DNA of 64,000 bases from Shigella phage JK23, in sequence record MK962752. One strand, written 5' to 3'. The notes under the pieces are model-generated. The model was not told where the DNA came from, did no database searches, and worked only from the letters and a program-made list of their open reading frames with translations. Below, one piece after another: positions 1 through 57,847 of the stretch. A program made the position numbers and the translations under genes. The number at the start of each line of letters is the position of its first letter. Positions within the stretch are counted from its first letter, which is position 1.

Positions 1-659
1 ACCGCGAAGTTGTTGATTGGATTAACTACTCCGCTCAGGTTGGTAAATCTGGTATGACCCTGACTCCGGGTTCTAAAGCTGGTGTATTTGACTTCCAGGA
101 CCCAATCGATATTCGTGGTGCTCGCTGGGCAGGTGAATCCTTTAAAGCTCTGTTGTTCCAGATTGACAAAGAAGCAGTTGAAATTGCTCGTCAGACTGGT
201 CGCGGCGAAGGTAACTTCATTATCGCTTCCCGTAACGTAGTTAACGTTCTGGCTTCAGTTGATACCGGCATTTCTTATGCTGCACAAGGTCTGGCTACTG
301 GCTTTAACACTGATACTACCAAGTCAGTATTTGCTGGTGTTCTGGGTGGTAAATACCGTGTATATATCGACCAGTATGCTAAACAGGATTATTTCACCGT
401 AGGTTATAAAGGTCCGAACGAAATGGATGCTGGTATTTACTATGCTCCATATGTAGCTCTGACTCCGCTGCGTGGTTCTGATCCGAAGAACTTCCAACCG
501 GTAATGGGATTCAAAACTCGTTACGGTATCGGTATCAACCCATTTGCAGAATCCGCTGCTCAGGCTCCGGCTTCTCGCATCCAGAGCGGTATGCCTTCTA
601 TTCTGAATAGCCTTGGTAAAAACGCTTACTTCCGCCGTGTATATGTTAAAGGTATCTAA
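1..659 (+). CDS. 23: major capsid protein gp23, C-terminal part (5' end lies outside window)
   Basis: Open frame from window edge, in frame with ORF 54..659; C-terminal ~200 aa match T4 gp23 from memory; followed by hairpin terminator. Confidence 0.85.
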   Translation, partial: REVVDWINYSAQVGKSGMTLTPGSKAGVFDFQDPIDIRGARWAGESFKALLFQIDKEAVEIARQTGRGEGNFIIASRNVVNVLASVDTGISYAAQGLATGFNTDTTKSVFAGVLGGKYRVYIDQYAKQDYFTVGYKGPNEMDAGIYYAPYVALTPLRGSDPKNFQPVMGFKTRYGIGINPFAESAAQAPASRIQSGMPSILNSLGKNAYFRRVYVKGI

Positions 660-2056: not shown

Positions 2057-3060
2057 TAACTTACCAATTCAATCCAAGCCGGACGAAGTACATCTTGTAC
2101 CATTTTAACTAATTCCTTTTTAACCAAAGAAGGATTATCTGCTTGAGTTAGAGTAATACCTTCACGAGAAGTTTCTTCCAAAATATCTTGAACAGTTAGT
2201 CCCATCACCTTTCCAAAATCCTTCGTACCAATTTCACCAATTTTAGAAATAACGTTATTTACTCGGTTCAGTGTAACGTAGCAAGCTAAAATTCCCACCA
2301 ATTTGTTATCAGCTTCTGATAGTTCAACTTTAGCTTTAATAGGCTTATCAGACTTTTTCTTTTCACTAAATTTGGAATTCTTGCATTTGATGGCTACACG
2401 ATTTCCATTATGAAGCCAAGAAGGATAACAAGGTTTCAATACATATCCTTCAGCGGTAAATACTTCGCCTTTGGCTTCAGCTTTCCAAACACATTTGTTA
2501 GCGTCAACTAATCCAGCATGGTCTACTGTAAAATTATAATCTTGGACGACAGAATCTAAATCATTTGGCAATTTAATAAGTTCTTCAAATTTACCACGAC
2601 CTAAAAGTGGAGCCATTTTAAATTTAAATGTATTACAAAATGATTCCATCATATAATCATCGACATAAGTCACATCACCACTTTCTGTAGTGACAATAAT
2701 GTCAAATACATAAAAATCTTTATCGCCATAATCGACATTCTTCTGAATGCCAGGTCCAGCGAATTCGCCAAAGACTTGATAAGATACAACCGCTGAGGTT
2801 TCCATAATATCTTGTACTGCTTTAATAGAATCTTCGTAATTCTTTAGAATAATTTCATACCCAAAGAAATCTTCAGCAGGAAGAATCGGTCCAGTACGTT
2901 TAGCGCAAGTTACTTTATCACGCTCAATAATCAATGAGAAATTTGTGCCGTGAATCTTTTCACGAGCTACCCACTCCCCACCAGTCAATCCCAAGCTATA
3001 AAGTTTTTCAATAAATTTAGAGTTGTAATGATTTTCAAGACTGCTATACTTTTTAAACAT
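2056..3060 (-). CDS. rnlB: RNA ligase 2 (Rnl2)
   Basis: 334 aa; near-identical to T4 Rnl2 as remembered, including N-terminal [16 protein letters not shown] and KIHGTN ligase motif I. Confidence 0.92.
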
Positions 3061-3069
3061 AATTAATCC

Positions 3070-3348
3070 TCAAAATGTAATTTCTAACCAATCACCATCA
3101 CGCTGATCACTATTGACTTTAAAGCTGAATCCTTCTTTTCTCAGCCAATCACCAATTTCTTCAGTAATCAATTTATCACGAGCAATACAATAATAACTAA
3201 AATGTGTTTTACCTTGTTCAGCTGCTTTATTAGCAAGTTCCGAAAAATCTTTAATAAAACACTCTAGCTTAAACTGTTTACTTTTAAGTGCTTTTTCGCG
3301 CAATTGATTAGCAAAAGATTCATTTTCATAAAGATCATACTGTTCCAT
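3070..3348 (-). CDS. hypothetical protein (T4 24.2 position)
   Basis: 92-aa ATG ORF in conserved position between rnlB and hoc. Confidence 0.6.
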   Translation of the reverse strand: MEQYDLYENESFANQLREKALKSKQFKLECFIKDFSELANKAAEQGKTHFSYYCIARDKLITEEIGDWLRKEGFSFKVNSDQRDGDWLEITF

Positions 3349-5798: not shown

Positions 5799-7310
5799 AT
5801 GACTGACATTAAAGTACATTTTTATGATTTTAGTCACGTGAGAATTGATTGCGAAGAAAGTACATTTCATGAACTCCGTGATTTCTTTAGCTTTGAAGCT
5901 GATGGGTATCGTTTTAATCCGAAGTACAAATATGGCCACTGGGATGGACGAATTCGTCTTTTAGATTATAATCGCCTTCTTCCATTCGGTTTAGTCGGGC
6001 AAATTAAAAAGTTCTGCGATAACTTTGGCTATAAAGCCTGGATTGACCCACAGATTAACGAAAAAGAAGAATTATCAAGAAAAGATTTTGATGAATGGCT
6101 TTCTAAATTAGAAATCTATTCAGGAAATAAAAGAATTGAACCGCATTGGTATCAAAAAGATGCAGTGTTCGAAGGATTAGTTAATCGTCGTAGAATTCTT
6201 AATCTTCCAACATCCGCAGGTAAATCTTTAATTCAAGCTTTGCTTGCTCGGTATTATTTGGAAAATTATGAAGGCAAAATTCTTATCATTGTTCCAACAA
6301 CTGCTCTAACAACTCAGATGGCTGATGACTTCGTTGACTATCGTTTATTCAGTCATGCAATGATAAAGAAAATTGGTGGCGGAGCATCAAAAGATGATAA
6401 ATATAAAAATGATGCACCAGTCGTTGTTGGTACATGGCAAACTGTAGTAAAACAACCGAAAGAATGGTTCTCACAGTTTGGAATGATGATGAATGATGAA
6501 TGCCATCTTGCTACAGGAAAAAGTATTTCATCTATCATATCAGGTTTAAATAACTGCATGTTCAAATTTGGTCTATCTGGTTCATTACGTGATGGCAAAG
6601 CCAATATCATGCAGTATGTTGGAATGTTTGGTGAAATATTTAAGCCAGTAACGACTTCTAAGTTAATGGAAGATGGACAAGTAACTGAGCTAAAAATTAA
6701 TAGTATTTTTCTTCGCTATCCCGATGAGTTCACTACTAAATTAAAGGGAAAAACTTATCAAGAAGAAATAAAAATTATTACGGGGCTTAGTAAAAGAAAT
6801 AAATGGATCGCTAAATTGGCTATTAAGCTTGCACAAAAAGATGAAAACGCTTTTGTCATGTTTAAACATGTATCACATGGTAAAGCTATTTTCGATTTAA
6901 TTAAAAATGAATACGATAAAGTTTATTACGTATCAGGGGAAGTTGATACCGAAACCCGCAATATAATGAAAACCTTAGCTGAAAATGGTAAAGGAATAAT
7001 TATAGTAGCTAGTTATGGTGTATTTTCTACTGGTATTTCAGTTAAAAATCTGCATCACGTTGTTTTAGCACACGGTGTTAAATCTAAAATTATTGTATTG
7101 CAAACAATAGGTCGCGTATTACGTAAACATGGTTCTAAAACAATCGCAACAGTCTGGGACCTCATAGATGACTGTGGTGTCAAGCCAAAATCTGCTAATA
7201 CTAAAAAGAAATATGTTCACTTGAACTATCTTTTAAAACACGGCATTGATCGTATTCAGCGCTACGCAGATGAAAAATTTAATTACGTAATGAAAACAGT
7301 TAATTTATAA
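5799..7310 (+). CDS. uvsW: UvsW RNA-DNA and DNA-DNA helicase
   Basis: 503 aa; SF2 helicase motifs (PTSAGKS Walker A, DECH box); matches T4 UvsW. Confidence 0.92.
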   Translation: MTDIKVHFYDFSHVRIDCEESTFHELRDFFSFEADGYRFNPKYKYGHWDGRIRLLDYNRLLPFGLVGQIKKFCDNFGYKAWIDPQINEKEELSRKDFDEWLSKLEIYSGNKRIEPHWYQKDAVFEGLVNRRRILNLPTSAGKSLIQALLARYYLENYEGKILIIVPTTALTTQMADDFVDYRLFSHAMIKKIGGGASKDDKYKNDAPVVVGTWQTVVKQPKEWFSQFGMMMNDECHLATGKSISSIISGLNNCMFKFGLSGSLRDGKANIMQYVGMFGEIFKPVTTSKLMEDGQVTELKINSIFLRYPDEFTTKLKGKTYQEEIKIITGLSKRNKWIAKLAIKLAQKDENAFVMFKHVSHGKAIFDLIKNEYDKVYYVSGEVDTETRNIMKTLAENGKGIIIVASYGVFSTGISVKNLHHVVLAHGVKSKIIVLQTIGRVLRKHGSKTIATVWDLIDDCGVKPKSANTKKKYVHLNYLLKHGIDRIQRYADEKFNYVMKTVNL

Positions 7311-8523: not shown

Positions 8524-8920
8524 ATACTCTATTACTGGAAGCCAGTTGTAGTTTTATCTGCTCAATATCATCAGGGTTATCGATGACTGAAAAGCGTATT
8601 TCTACTATCAAAGTATAATCATCATAAACCGGTATTACATTAACTGCTAATTTATCAATACGTGGCTCATAGTTTCTTACTGCGCTTTCGATATTACGCT
8701 CAACCGTGTCAGCAGTAAGAGGAGTCATATTCTCAAAAAGTTGGTCAGATAAATCACATCCAAATTCAGGGTCAAACGGTCTTGAACCTTTTCTTGTTGT
8801 AATAATTCCTAAAAGACTATTTTTAATTGACCTTAATCCAAGTGATCTTGAAACGTCTTTGTTCCAATCCATTTTCATCTCTGGGTCAATATCAGAATAA
8901 AGCTTATTAATATTTGCCAT
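8522..8920 (-). CDS. 25: baseplate wedge protein gp25
   Basis: 132 aa; conserved position and sequence. Confidence 0.88.
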   Translation of the reverse strand: MANINKLYSDIDPEMKMDWNKDVSRSLGLRSIKNSLLGIITTRKGSRPFDPEFGCDLSDQLFENMTPLTADTVERNIESAVRNYEPRIDKLAVNVIPVYDDYTLIVEIRFSVIDNPDDIEQIKLQLASSNRV

Positions 8921-9546
8921 TACAATAGCTCAAAGAATTCTTTGAGTCCTCTTATTACATGAGCGTGAGTTTTTCCACACTCTGGACACTTAATTGGAAC
9001 AGCCAAATAAACAGTAGGCTTTAAAAGCATATCTTTTATAGCTACAATATCTGACTCTGTGATGATAGAATATAAATCTTCCAATTCTTTTTCATTTAAG
9101 TCTTCAACTGGAATGCTTTCACCGTTAGCATGAATCGTTTCTATACATGATACTATCATGTGGGCTATATTTTTATCATCAAAAATTTTAGGGTAATGGA
9201 ATTTAATTTTAATGTCACCCAGTGTATACCAGAGGTCTTCTGGTGCATCTATTTGTGCATGTAATAGATTTATATGGGTTGGTATTTCAGTTCCACAGGT
9301 GCACTTCCAGGAGTTTTCGTGATTAACTTCTCCAAGAGAATGTGCCCATAAATGAATCAACAATAGTTCTGATTCTTGGCGGTTTAAATCTTTTGCATTT
9401 GTGCAGTCTTTGATTAGCTTTTTAACAATTACTTCTACAGAACCATTATTTTTGGCAGTAATAAGTTCTAGATATTCTTTAAGCGTGAATGCGCGACAAT
9501 TGATTATTTTAGAACCAACTCTCACATCAAATTTGTATTCATACAT
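8920..9546 (-). CDS. 26: baseplate hub protein gp26
   Basis: 208 aa; adjacent to 25, divergent from 51. Confidence 0.85.
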
Positions 9547-55119: not shown

Positions 55120-55392
55120 TTATTTGTTTGTATACATCTCTAGATATCGATATACACCCTCAAAACCCTCGTTGAATTCGTCGATGAGGGTTTTCTTATC
55201 TTCTTGGGTTAATTCAGAAACAATTTTACGAAATGAATTCTGATTTAACTTTCTACCTTCATGCGTTACTCCAATCTCATTCAGAAATGCAATAAAATTA
55301 GCACGATTCTCAACAATATCTTCTCTGGAAAATTTAATCAAAATAGATGCAACAGTAATAATTTCACGAACTGTATCAATGTTTTTATTCAT
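55120..55392 (-). CDS. asiA: anti-sigma-70 factor AsiA
   Basis: 90 aa; N-terminus MNKNIDTVREIITVASILIKF as in T4 AsiA. Confidence 0.92.
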   Translation of the reverse strand: MNKNIDTVREIITVASILIKFSREDIVENRANFIAFLNEIGVTHEGRKLNQNSFRKIVSELTQEDKKTLIDEFNEGFEGVYRYLEMYTNK

Positions 55393-55404
55393 TAACTATA
55401 CCAC

Positions 55405-55557
55405 TCAATTAGTTGACTTTGTTATAATATCATCAGACGCTTGATTTGTAAACTGGTCTGTGTTATTTTCTTCAAAAATTTTTTCTACGAATTCCTTGAA
55501 CGACTCGCGTTCCTGAGCTACATTATGCTCGATTACCTTTTCAAGATTATAACTCAT
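55405..55557 (-). CDS. hypothetical small acidic protein
   Basis: 50-aa ATG ORF below track threshold; start overlaps arn stop (ATGA). Confidence 0.5.
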   Translation of the reverse strand: MSYNLEKVIEHNVAQERESFKEFVEKIFEENNTDQFTNQASDDIITKSTN

Positions 55558-55832
55558 TCGAAATAATCTTCAATTTCGTAATCATGGACATAAATCATTA
55601 TAGTTTTTAATACATCATCAATGCTTTTTCCTGGGGCTGGAATTACGTAGAAATATCCTGCTTTTGAGAGGTCTTTATAAGTTCCAATTAAGAAATCGTT
55701 ATTCTCAAGATGTAGTTCTTCAACTAATTCATTAATAATTGAATGGTATAAATTTGGTAGAAACTTATATAGCTTTTCTAGAATATCAATTTTGATTGTA
55801 TATTGAACCACAGACTGAGAATCAATAATCAT
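55554..55832 (-). CDS. arn: Arn anti-restriction protein (McrBC inhibitor)
   Basis: 92-aa acidic protein; position between asiA and motA. Confidence 0.75.
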   Translation of the reverse strand: MIIDSQSVVQYTIKIDILEKLYKFLPNLYHSIINELVEELHLENNDFLIGTYKDLSKAGYFYVIPAPGKSIDDVLKTIMIYVHDYEIEDYFE

Positions 55833-55915
55833 AGACCTTCCCCTTATGTTTCTGTTTGCGATTAGATTCTTTAAACGCTTTCTTCTTATCCTTATGAACA
55901 GAAGCTTTATTAAAA

Positions 55916-56134
55916 TTATGCTTTGCGACTAAATTGTTCATAGTGCTGAATTACCTCTCTCAAACATTTGCATGTGAATGAAAACTTTTTAGCTACACCA
56001 CATTCAAATATGTGTTCTCTTAAATCACGTGTATCAGTATATCCCATCTCAACAATAAAATGCCGTATTAGATTTTTATCTTTATCATTGAGAGAATTAA
56101 AATAATCAGATTTTGAATTAATTTCCCTGGCCAA
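55916..56134 (-). CDS. hypothetical Cys-containing protein (arn.1 position)
   Basis: 72-aa ORF with TTG start preceded by GAAGGTGA Shine-Dalgarno. Confidence 0.5.
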   Translation of the reverse strand: MAREINSKSDYFNSLNDKDKNLIRHFIVEMGYTDTRDLREHIFECGVAKKFSFTCKCLREVIQHYEQFSRKA

Positions 56135-56414
56135 ATTGAATCACCTTCAGTTGACGTTTTAATTCTTTTATCATTTCTTCGTTCATCGCAATATAAAGAT
56201 CGCGTAAAGCAGGTTTTAGCATTCCATTTACTGGAGAACTAAATGGACATACATAATCTTTTCCTACAAGCTTTTTGGCAAATTCCATATCACAAAATTT
56301 AAATGCCGGCTCATTCGCATAAATTCCCCAATTAGTTGACATCATTTTATTGGCATATTCCAGTGCCTGAATTTGATTCATAATTCCATCAATTTGAAAC
56401 TTTTTAATATTCAT
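56118..56414 (-). CDS. hypothetical protein (arn.2 position)
   Basis: 98-aa ATG ORF. Confidence 0.6.
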   Translation of the reverse strand: MNIKKFQIDGIMNQIQALEYANKMMSTNWGIYANEPAFKFCDMEFAKKLVGKDYVCPFSSPVNGMLKPALRDLYIAMNEEMIKELKRQLKVIQFGQGN

Positions 56415-56875
56415 TAGTAAAGGTCCTCAGAGTAAAGTTCTTTTTCACTACCACCACGTTCAATACGTACTTGTCCAGCGTAAGTTGCAATAATCATTGC
56501 TTCTTCACGTGTCCAATAATTACTATATTGGTCAATAAACCCTTGGTCATCATCACAAACTTGTTGAGTAACTAATTGAGGTTTAACTATATCTAAAACT
56601 TCGGCCATATCTTTAGAATAATGACGAGCACCTGGAATAATAAGAGTTCGTCCATCTTTTAATTTAAAACGGTTGGCTGCACAGACAATTCGTCGTTGAT
56701 ACTTTTGGTTTTTATCCCAGTACGCAGTCTGCCAACAGATTTCAGGAACTTCATCTAAAACATTTTGTTCTGTATATTCACCGCCGTAAGAAGCTAATTT
56801 AGCAGCCAGACTTTCCGGAGTCTCACGTAACAAAGCTTTATCTAACAGAGCTAAACGTTCTTTAAAAGTTTTCAT
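56414..56875 (-). CDS. hypothetical protein (arn.3 position)
   Basis: 153-aa ATG ORF. Confidence 0.65.
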
Positions 56876-57201
56876 TTAAACCATCCTTTAATACGTTGCC
56901 ACAAAGTTTTCTGTTGAGCTTTGTTAACACCAATTGAACGAATAACTGGTTGAGATTCCTGGAATTCTTTATAATCGGCAAGGTAAATTTCGTAAGCTGT
57001 ATCAGTAAATGAACTTATCGCTGCCATGAAATTATTGCGAATACCTACCGGAGCATCCTTATTTTCACGAATAATCATGTATTTACCAGTCTTAATCTTT
57101 ACAATAGTTCCAAGATAAGCTCCGTGGTACCAAATATCCCAACCCTCTTGAGTAGGTTCTGCACAACGACGAAGTTCATTAATAATTTCTAACTTGTTCA
57201 T
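56872..57201 (-). CDS. hypothetical protein (arn.4/motA.1 position)
   Basis: 109-aa ATG ORF. Confidence 0.6.
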
Positions 57202-57211
57202 TATTTATTCC

Positions 57212-57847
57212 TCACAGTTCAGATGCTACAGCGATTACTGCTTCAATGTTTTCTGCTGAGCGTTTAATGTCAAGATACACATTACCGTTTTTAGCGATTT
57301 TACATGACATTCCGATATCAGTAAATTTCTGAATATGATGTTCCATCATTTTGTATCCAAAAATTCGCATATTTCCATTATTGTTAATTTCAAAATTACG
57401 AATTCCGTGAGTACGTTTTTCTAAAATAGCGAGATAGTTACTGCGGTAAGTTTCAACCTTTTTAAGAACAAATCCATTTTCATCTAAAAGTTTTAACATG
57501 AGGTCTTTATCTTCTTCCATATCAGAAGTAATCTCACGAGCTTTACGAGTTGCTCGTTTTTTCAGTAGTTCCGGAGCATTTTCCTGTGCGTATAAAGTTG
57601 CTGCGTTTGAAATAATATCCTGGGCTTCACCTGTAATGATTAATCCATCACCAGATTTCTCCACCAGGCCTTTTTTAATCAATACCCCAATATTACTATT
57701 AACTACTGCGTTACCTAAATCTGGATGCACCTCACGAACTTCTGCAGCTGTAATGAAATCTTTCTTAGCAATAGTAATTAAAATCGCAGCAGTTTTTTCA
57801 TTCAGAACATCGTTAGAAGCTTTGATGATGTAAGTTACTTTAGACAT
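57212..57847 (-). CDS. motA: MotA activator of middle transcription
   Basis: 211 aa; matches T4 MotA size and sequence. Confidence 0.92.
   Translation of the reverse strand: MSKVTYIIKASNDVLNEKTAAILITIAKKDFITAAEVREVHPDLGNAVVNSNIGVLIKKGLVEKSGDGLIITGEAQDIISNAATLYAQENAPELLKKRATRKAREITSDMEEDKDLMLKLLDENGFVLKKVETYRSNYLAILEKRTHGIRNFEINNNGNMRIFGYKMMEHHIQKFTDIGMSCKIAKNGNVYLDIKRSAENIEAVIAVASEL

Follow-up and report, generated by a model that had tools for sequence, protein, structure and literature searches.

The seven-gene arn operon of Shigella phage JK23 and the likeness of its Arn.3 protein to the antitoxin CmdA

We analysed a 64,000-nucleotide stretch of the genome of Shigella phage JK23 (sequence record MK962752), here called the window, and focused on the small genes that lie at 55405–57201 between asiA and motA. 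The interval is certainly the catalogued arn operon of T4-like phages (asiA.1, arn and arn.1 to arn.4), and the locus is not new, its genes having figured on the T4 map for decades. Proteins that disarm host immunity are the most likely products of the block. One of them, Arn.3, is clearly homologous over residues 1–32 to the N-terminus of CmdA, the antitoxin of the CmdTAC defence system. We consider it probable that the cluster is mainly an accessory operon for counter-defence or host takeover. The complete explanation, an accessory operon of seven tightly packed and coupled genes that mostly disarm host immunity, with Arn.3 doing so by mimicry of CmdA, falls somewhat short of an even chance; the component that Arn.3 acts by such mimicry is, taken for itself, possible but doubtful.

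A CmdA-like module at the N-terminus of Arn.3

Gene arn.3 (56414–56875, minus strand) encodes 153 amino acids. An original prediction, made from the DNA letters alone, had recognised no motif in this protein or in its neighbours other than Arn. This held for Pfam, NCBIfam and the PDB, in which none of the six non-Arn proteins received a functional assignment (in the PDB, Arn alone of the seven was matched), but it did not hold for the N-terminus of Arn.3. Residues 1–30 matched positions 1–30 of the 77-position PADLOC profile PD-T4-9_B (E = 5.6e-8), as did nine of the 39 members of the Arn.3 family (best E = 1.2e-9). PD-T4-9_B represents the second gene of the PD-T4-9 system and thus CmdA; PD-T4-9 is CmdTAC, which is found in P2-like prophages and comprises the ADP-ribosyltransferase toxin CmdT, the antitoxin CmdA and the SecB-like chaperone CmdC. 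Viral contigs and an E. coli chromosome both contained the cmdTAC locus in its P2-like order of toxin, antitoxin and SecB; we used the CmdA sequence at 2971–3204 of retrieved stretch L011, its start (MLSFEQRM) being confirmed from published primers. BLASTP of Arn.3 against this 77-amino-acid CmdA gave 17 identical residues of 32 (53%; pairwise E = 7e-9; CmdA segment MLSFEQRMALLNKALQQYNPESLYEKLSSYPA), and other Arn.3 alleles reached up to 19/30. The module outlined by PADLOC and BLASTP, Arn.3 residues 1–32, is encoded at 56780..56875 on the minus strand. In an AlphaFold2 model of Arn.3 (mean predicted local distance difference test score, pLDDT, 88; predicted template modelling score 0.79), helices at residues 4–14 and 20–29 were followed by a confident globular domain.

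CmdA consists of an N-terminal helix pair and a long unstructured tail that ends in an LAA degron for ClpXP (Nature 2024 paper). When T4 infects, its capsid protein titrates away the chaperone, which leads to degradation of CmdA and to ADP-ribosylation of mRNA by CmdT. The system acts against Tevenvirinae only (Vassallo et al.). What CmdA and Arn.3 share is the N-terminal two-helix pair of ~30 residues, and beyond it they differ. CmdA has a disordered chaperone-addiction tail that is missing from Arn.3, in which only profile positions 1–30 of 77 are matched, and CmdA ends in ELDLAA, with the LAA degron, whereas Arn.3 ends in LYSEDLY, a motif conserved throughout its family. Gene cmdA sits between the genes for an ADP-ribosyltransferase toxin and a SecB-like chaperone, whereas the neighbours of arn.3 are arn.4 and arn.2, neither of which matches such families. 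Lastly, Arn.3 is encoded by a lytic phage and CmdA by P2-like prophages.

The N-terminal module of Arn.3 is hypervariable and recombines independently of the rest of the protein. The window and T4 carry different alleles, with 49% identity in residues 1–45 and 97% in the remainder, whereas other Arn.3 alleles reverse this pattern (93% in the N-terminal part versus 69% in the rest). The Arn.3 orthologue of Erwinia phage FBB1 carries the module as well. So do two other proteins: one of 160 amino acids in the schizo-T4 Vibrio phage phi-Grn1, which has the module N-terminally and an unrelated C-terminus, and one of 324 amino acids in Acinetobacter phage LAPP1, in which the module is internal. In the phi-Grn1 protein the match extends to CmdA residue 40 (residues 31–40, SYPAxGPT). 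A portable, hypervariable module homologous to an antitoxin is, we infer, the expected look of an antitoxin mimic under arms-race selection.

The three unrelated C-terminal contexts of the segment would also suit a different explanation, to which we give a tentative but appreciable weight: a portable structural or adaptor module, serving dimerisation or the binding of something other than CmdT, on a protein that is unconnected with CmdTAC and whose C-terminal domain acts on another target, such as nucleotide, nicotinamide adenine dinucleotide (NAD) or RNA metabolism or a host factor. CmdA may then have acquired the segment from phages, or a common pool may have supplied both. Since CmdTAC specifically targets Tevenvirinae, 53–63% identity to its antitoxin over 30 residues is nevertheless hard to credit to a generic helix pair. 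The hypervariability and mosaicism of the module are what is expected of a conflict surface, and the Vibrio phage copy carries the match beyond the helices into residues 31–40 of CmdA.

In the complete explanation, the mechanism would run as follows. The seven minus-strand genes would be transcribed with or just after motA, and Arn.3 would present the CmdA-derived two-helix N-terminus joined to T4_Y16D, a globular domain that is stable, where CmdA has its addiction tail and ClpXP degron. The N-terminal helices of CmdA are presumed to bind the mRNA ADP-ribosyltransferase CmdT. When the capsid protein strips the chaperone away and CmdA is degraded, Arn.3 would stay on toxins of the CmdT family and keep them neutralised. 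Such neutralisation would be allele-specific, which would explain a hypervariable and independently recombining N-terminal module. Phages are known to encode antitoxin substitutes, among them T4 Dmd, directed against RnlA and LsoA, and the pseudo-ToxI of phage PhiTE, directed against ToxN. The logic proposed for Arn.3 is the same, a stable phage stand-in for a labile host antitoxin; however, Dmd shares no homology with the antitoxins for which it stands in, whereas Arn.3 would be a protein mimic in which a piece of a homologous antitoxin is joined to a domain of unrelated origin.

The C-terminal domain of Arn.3

Residues 46–153 of Arn.3 (108 residues; 56417..56740, minus strand) form the alpha/beta domain T4_Y16D (PF26092), with a conserved core of ~95 residues; the Pfam assignment is precomputed for exactly this protein. 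In the model the core of this part had pLDDT values of 92–98. The protein as a whole matched phrog_839 (E = 1e-72) and had 163 homologous clusters. For the domain, a profile search of 1.84 billion representatives returned 3376 clusters (defined at 50% identity) at E <= 1e-3 and 1380 at E <= 1e-10. The domain mostly stands alone, the median length among the top 145 representatives being 126 amino acids, and ten long fusion proteins showed no Pfam partner domain. An alignment of 145 distant representatives revealed near-invariant R-H, Q-G-F-x-D, R, Q and C-terminal L-x-S-E-x-L-Y positions, and the corresponding motifs VCAA(N)R, xRH, QGFxD, R..A and LxSExLY are all present in the window's Arn.3. 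To judge from the alignment, these conserved polar residues could well form an active site or else a pocket for specific binding. That the conserved part of Arn.3 is a domain with enzyme-like invariant residues, most of whose 3376 clusters have no CmdA-like module, argues for the adaptor-module alternative.

Structure prediction and Foldseek had been recommended in the original prediction; they yielded models of Arn.3 and of the long form of Arn.4, and neither matched a fold in the PDB. For Arn.3 the best PDB hit had E = 0.08 with TM-scores <= 0.3, and for Arn.4 (pLDDT 80.5) E = 0.27 with TM-scores <= 0.3; PDB rows for FERM/YkuJ, Fur/ArgR and cytidine deaminase were rejected as noise. Against BFVD, the Arn.3 model matched uncharacterised phage proteins and segments of three ‘large polyvalent protein associated domain’ proteins, the latter weakly (E = 9e-3 to 9e-2, TM-scores ~0.36, probability 0.98–1.0). 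Delivery of anti-defence activities has been ascribed to polyvalent proteins (Iyer et al. 2017, PMC5512222), which are virion-packaged giants, whereas Arn.3 is a small early or middle protein. The C-terminal domain is unrelated to the CmdT toxin (hhalign probability 0.1).

In one metagenomic phage lineage (retrieved stretches L025, 3002–7540, and L026, 129–4667), a T4_Y16D gene directly follows an RNA-ligase-like gene and lies four genes before NadR-like and PnuC-like genes of NAD salvage. This neighbourhood is a weak hint at RNA or NAD chemistry. Like the apparent recurrence of the domain inside polyvalent proteins, it speaks for an Arn.3 that works through T4_Y16D and independently of CmdTAC, as the adaptor-module alternative has it.

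Arn.3 alleles and natural escape from CmdTAC

CmdTAC-ECOR22 restricts all tested Tevenvirinae of the BASEL collection by 1e2 to 1e5 except Bas35 and Bas38 (Vassallo et al.). We assumed that the 12 phages of that paper are Bas35–Bas46 (BASEL lists 13 T-even isolates) and extracted Arn.3 from these and from T4. Nine sensitive phages, T4, Bas37 and Bas39–Bas45, carry a divergent MNPF..VPL allele that has a proline (Pro14) in helix 1 and matches CmdA at 11–12 of 30 positions. The Arn.3 of Bas36 is identical to that of the window (17/30), and Bas46 has an MKSF-type protein (16/30); both phages are sensitive. The two escapers each have a unique CmdA-like, MKTF-type protein with a longer linker, matching CmdA at 14/30 (Bas35) and 15/30 (Bas38). 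Their alleles, and the sensitivity of all nine phages of the Pro14 type, speak for CmdA mimicry. Extension of Alt.-3, a known laboratory escape route, was considered as the cause of their escape and rejected, both phages having the wild-type 96-amino-acid protein; this, too, favours mimicry.

Several of these observations weigh against CmdA mimicry. Bas36, whose Arn.3 is the same protein as in the window, is reportedly restricted by CmdTAC-ECOR22, so that possession of this allele does not suffice against the ECOR22 system, as the adaptor-module alternative would have it; antitoxin mimicry is thus an allele-specific hypothesis and not a result. Bas46 is sensitive despite its CmdA-like allele (16/30). 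The association of allele with escape is weak (two of four versus none of nine, Fisher p ~0.08), and the phages are not phylogenetically independent. The CmdTAC trigger, gp23, differs from that of Bas36 at 18 residues in Bas35 and at eight in Bas38, within residues 138–220, and both escapers share the residues at positions 138, 139, 199 and 201 (S138, G139, D199, G201); variation in the trigger explains escape at least as well as the arn.3 allele does. That the N-terminal helices of CmdA are the CmdT-binding surface is something we infer from the published description. The T4_Y16D domain is mostly found without the module, so the core activity of Arn.3 is something else. Beyond Arn.3, the original prediction had offered all these small genes as candidate inhibitors of restriction or abortive-infection systems; in its favour, Arn inhibits McrBC, the neighbouring genes are dispensable and the Arn.3 module is shared with CmdA, whereas for AsiA.1, Arn.1, Arn.2, Arn.4 and a 39-amino-acid protein there is no functional evidence.

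A more specific form of the mimicry proposal we regard as unlikely. In it, Arn.3 would be modular and allele-specific, a swappable CmdA-like fragment docking on toxins of the CmdT family and T4_Y16D providing either stability or a new enzymatic activity that reverses or forestalls what the toxin does (e.g. removal of ADP-ribose from RNA), and the escape of Bas35 and Bas38 would map to arn.3. We looked for diverse CmdTAC loci, whose antitoxins reportedly vary widely, that would allow CmdA and Arn.3 alleles to be paired: tblastn against plasmids gave chance serS matches only, a DNA-level search of E. coli genomes found none, and CmdT-seeded scans of genome and viral contigs gave near-identical systems only. 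As a side observation, gp23 of the BASEL phages varies almost only in residues 138–220, and the window begins inside the major capsid gene 23 (3–656, plus strand; residues 304–521, 100% identical to Bas36).

Organisation and transcription of the operon

The original prediction had placed six small genes of 50, 72, 92, 98, 153 and 109 amino acids between asiA and motA. All six exist at these lengths on the minus strand, asiA and motA flank them, and 55405–57201 runs exactly from the stop of the 50-amino-acid open reading frame (ORF) to the start of the 109-amino-acid one; a seventh gene, the 39-amino-acid ORF at 55822–55941, had been missed. In the order of transcription, and all on the minus strand, the genes are motA (57212–57847, 211 amino acids), arn.4 in its long form (56872–57201, 109), arn.3, arn.2 (56118–56414, 98), arn.1 in its long form (55916–56134, 72, TTG start), orf39 (DUF7230), arn (55554–55832, 92), asiA.1 (55405–55557, 50) and asiA (55120–55392, 90). 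The genes left unnamed other than arn are the known T4 genes asiA.1 and arn.1 to arn.4; the T4 reference annotation and a better-annotated relative gave asiA.1 for the ORF of 50 amino acids, arn for that of 92, arn.2 for that of 98 and arn.3 for that of 153. Read from the sequence, adjacent genes of the cluster overlap by 1–26 nucleotides or are separated by gaps of 10–12 nucleotides, the usual sign of translational coupling.

Every ORF matched a PHROG or Pfam family (E = 1e-11 to 1e-72), none of which, apart from that of Arn, has an assigned function, and newer Pfam releases name such families after T4 UniProt entries (Phage_T4_Y16F, T4_Y16D, Phage_T4_Y16C, Phage_T4_Y16B). The window genome is a Tequatrovirus (T4-like), and the block shares 97–98% DNA identity with hundreds of Tequatrovirus genomes. 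Over 54.5–58.5 kb, identity was 98.2% with Yersinia phage fPS-65 and 97.8% with Escherichia phage Paracelsus (Bas36), and 477 phage records covered at least 80% of this region. The same gene order was found in a Mosigvirus, a Kanagawavirus and a T4-like Klebsiella phage. The family matches, the DNA identity and the shared gene order together indicate that the ORFs are not due to chance. Matches to Thr_dehydrat_C, Homeodomain, SPP1_GP23-1, Prok-E2_B and REase_II were dismissed as far below cut-offs. Compared with the arn operon of T4 and T2, the window has the same genes in the same order and on the same strand, with protein identities to T4 of 82–100%. As a side observation, genes have been gained and lost at this locus: an extra 51-amino-acid ORF lies between arn.3 and arn.4 in Bas35 (8841–8996 in retrieved stretch L016), and Bas35 (10074–10301 of L016) and Bas36 (6167–6394 of retrieved stretch L018) have a 75-amino-acid ORF between motA and motA.1 that neither the window nor T4 contains.

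Every gene between holin gene t and topoisomerase gene 52 lies on the minus strand. A consensus scan of that strand placed a terminator-like hairpin (57970–57949) and then a sigma-70-like promoter (57917–57889) upstream of motA, and found no terminator-like site from motA to asiA.1 nor inside the cluster. A candidate MotA-box middle promoter inside arn.2 (TGCTTTA, 56205–56211) was rejected, its spacing to a −10-like element looking too short by eye. A 14-base-pair terminator-like hairpin for the convergent holin gene t lies on the plus strand at 55162–55194, within the 3' end of the oppositely oriented asiA; the same hairpin is annotated as a terminator in phage vB_Eco_NR1.

A June 2026 preprint (bioRxiv 10.64898/2026.06.19.733364) describes arn.4-arn.3-arn.2-arn.1-arn of T2 as one middle transcript, which the host small RNA ArcZ protects from RNase E; deletion of mcrC suppresses the phenotype. 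With this report and with no terminator-like site between motA and the cluster, the designation of the genes as ‘early’ proved imprecise. The same preprint states twice that arn.1 to arn.4, of unknown function, are ‘conceivably’ involved in counter-defence; a full-text literature search on these gene names found no further relevant paper. In a genome-wide CRISPRi-ART knock-down of T4, asiA.1, arn and arn.1 to arn.4 were all scored ‘Not Fit’, that is, without fitness loss, and are therefore dispensable on the laboratory host, which is poor in defences. Conditionally useful anti-defence genes would look like this.

The position of the small genes between asiA and motA, with which they are co-transcribed, could alternatively mean that they are host-takeover factors that, like AsiA and MotA, tune transcription, translation or RNA decay at the early-to-middle switch, and are not defence inhibitors. 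This we hold to be rather unlikely. The control of their mRNA by host Hfq, ArcZ and RNase E would suit such a role, as would their retention in similar order across Tevenvirinae genera and the basic character of the 39-amino-acid protein (extremely basic) and of Arn.1, Arn.2 and Arn.4 (mildly so), with which nucleic-acid binding is possible. However, knock-down carries no fitness cost in the laboratory host, no helix-turn-helix, RNA-binding or other regulatory domain was detected with Pfam and NCBIfam, Arn in the same operon is a defence inhibitor, and the link of Arn.3 is to a defence antitoxin.

Arn, AsiA.1 and the 39-amino-acid gene

The original prediction's identification of an anti-restriction gene was corroborated: the product of 55554–55832 is a member of the Arn DNA-mimic family, matching Pfam PF22134 (DM_Arn; E = 1.2e-53, 179.8 bits against a cut-off of 26) and, over residues 1–92, PDB chain 3wx4_A (E = 1.6e-55). 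With T4 Arn it shares 96.7% identity. By mimicking DNA, Arn inhibits the restriction enzyme McrBC (PDB 3WX4). The other six proteins show no sequence likeness to it, and AsiA.1 alone is similarly acidic (isoelectric point 4.4, net charge −6). AsiA.1 matched phrog_3762 (E = 1.6e-37) and had no relative in Pfam, NCBIfam or the PDB.

Gene orf39, which overlaps the start of arn and the end of the 72-amino-acid ORF, encodes a very basic protein (isoelectric point 10.2, net charge +9). It matched Pfam DUF7230 (PF23876; E = 1.2e-11, 44.9 bits against a cut-off of 27), an assignment also precomputed in a sister genome, and phrog_1359 (E = 5e-23). By tblastn it occurs in 1218 phage records, and it is 100% identical in T2 and T4. 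Compared with two other genera, 16/26 and 19/33 of the differences fall in third codon positions. We consider orf39 to be a real gene on this sequence evidence; the T4 reference leaves this conserved gene unannotated. Four longer PHROG families (56–128 amino acids) have N-termini that likewise match its first ~25 residues (MNNLVAKHNFNKASVHKDKKKAFKE), and the matching region of Klebsiella phage K65_evo1 overlaps an annotated 121-amino-acid gene (2407–2772) at its start. This suggests a second small N-terminal module that is reused on different proteins.

Corrected models of arn.1 and arn.4

The one ORF with a TTG start, as the original prediction had noted, is the 72-amino-acid one, arn.1; AAGGTG lies upstream of the start. 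The T4 reference holds only its last 43 codons, from Met30 (window 56047), and T4 contains the same 72-codon TTG ORF. The long form matched phrog_4452 over residues 1–71 (E = 7e-39), whereas phrog_6212, the family of T4 Arn.1, covers residues 30–72 only. Protein similarity extends over the full length down to 52% identity in Klebsiella phages, substitution patterns are similar in codons 1–29 and 30–72, and the homologues in Mosigvirus phiC120 and Kosakonia phage 305 have ATG at the codon equivalent to the TTG. These comparisons support the 72-amino-acid TTG ORF as the full-length T4 arn.1, annotated too short in T4.

For arn.4 the T4 reference likewise holds only the last 68 codons, from Met42 (window 57078), compared with 109 amino acids in the window and most relatives. 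The long form matched phrog_1594 over its full length (E = 2.5e-54), whereas phrog_33982, the family of T4 Arn.4, covers residues 42–109 only. Arn.4 belongs to PF26821 (Phage_T4_Y16F; 56 clusters), whose named sources are all T4-like phages, two of them with E. coli/UniRef labels, most rows being unnamed. In T4 the first codon is ATA and not ATG, and the frame is open (NC_000866; 3628–3957 in retrieved stretch L001). The start codon aside, the window and T4 differ over the 109 codons by 14 synonymous and three non-synonymous changes. By these data the 109-amino-acid ORF is the full-length T4 arn.4, with its frame under purifying selection, and the 68-amino-acid T4 ‘Arn.4’ reflects either an annotation that was cut short or a mutated start codon in the laboratory strain.

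We also weighed whether the 39- and 50-amino-acid ORFs and the N-terminal extensions of the 72- and 109-amino-acid ORFs are untranslated artefacts of ORF calling in an AT-rich genome. The T4 reference lacks the 39-amino-acid ORF and both extensions, the 72-amino-acid ORF starts with TTG, and T4 has ATA at the start of the 109-amino-acid one. We nonetheless regard this as extremely improbable, given the full-length protein-level conservation in distant genera, the use of ATG at the same codon by homologues of the 72-amino-acid ORF in other genera, the excess of synonymous changes in the 109-amino-acid ORF (14 versus three), and the curated Pfam and PHROG families that cover the long forms.

Arn.2 matched phrog_1844 (E = 7e-51) and Pfam PF26819 (Phage_T4_Y16C). 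The cluster search retrieved close relatives only (23 clusters, of low diversity), and the PDB search none; divergent syntenic homologues with 41–45% identity were found in a Mosigvirus and a Klebsiella phage. Like Arn.1, Arn.3 and Arn.4 it is mildly basic. The 3' end of arn.2 contains the site CCAGGGAAAT (56121..56130, minus strand; arn.2 +285 to +294), which we take to be complementary to the ArcZ seed AUUUCCCUGG. Pairing of this site with the host small RNA has been reported, and its position here follows that report (bioRxiv 10.64898/2026.06.19.733364). In the long arn.1 ORF the same nucleotides occupy positions +5 to +14, next to the TTG start, and an additional effect of ArcZ on translation of Arn.1 is therefore conceivable. 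A putative RNase E motif, GCAUU, follows at 56059..56063 (minus strand), 11 nucleotides upstream of the short-form arn.1 ATG and inside the long ORF. Motif and spacing are as in the preprint, according to which a 70-nucleotide arn.2-arn.1 ‘intergenic region’ of T2 and T4 carries the RNase E site downstream of the ArcZ site; both elements described in T2 are thus present in the window. The ‘intergenic region’ (56048–56117, minus strand) is almost certainly coding and makes up most of arn.1 codons 1–29. The corrected gene models therefore put the RNase E site reported in 2026 inside the coding sequence of arn.1 and the ArcZ site over its start region. In Mosigvirus phiC120, in which the arn.1 homologue starts with ATG, the CCAGGGAAAT site is absent.

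In many GenBank and UniRef records the homologues of arn.1 to arn.4 are called ‘anti-restriction nuclease’, and in some motA is called ‘flagellar motor protein’. Both labels appear to have been propagated by gene-name similarity. No nuclease family was found for the arn.1 to arn.4 proteins in Pfam, NCBIfam or PHROGs. The sole nuclease hint was a very weak match of Arn.4 to PADLOC REase_II (16.8 bits, E = 0.001).

Implications

The likeness to CmdA would provide a first functional handle on Arn.3. If Arn.3 does neutralise CmdT-type toxins by means of a piece of their own antitoxin, a lytic phage would clearly have borrowed part of a component of host immunity, and the hypervariability of its N-terminal module among T-even phages would be explained. 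Such a finding would also open a way into the T4_Y16D family, a very large one for which neither fold nor function is known.

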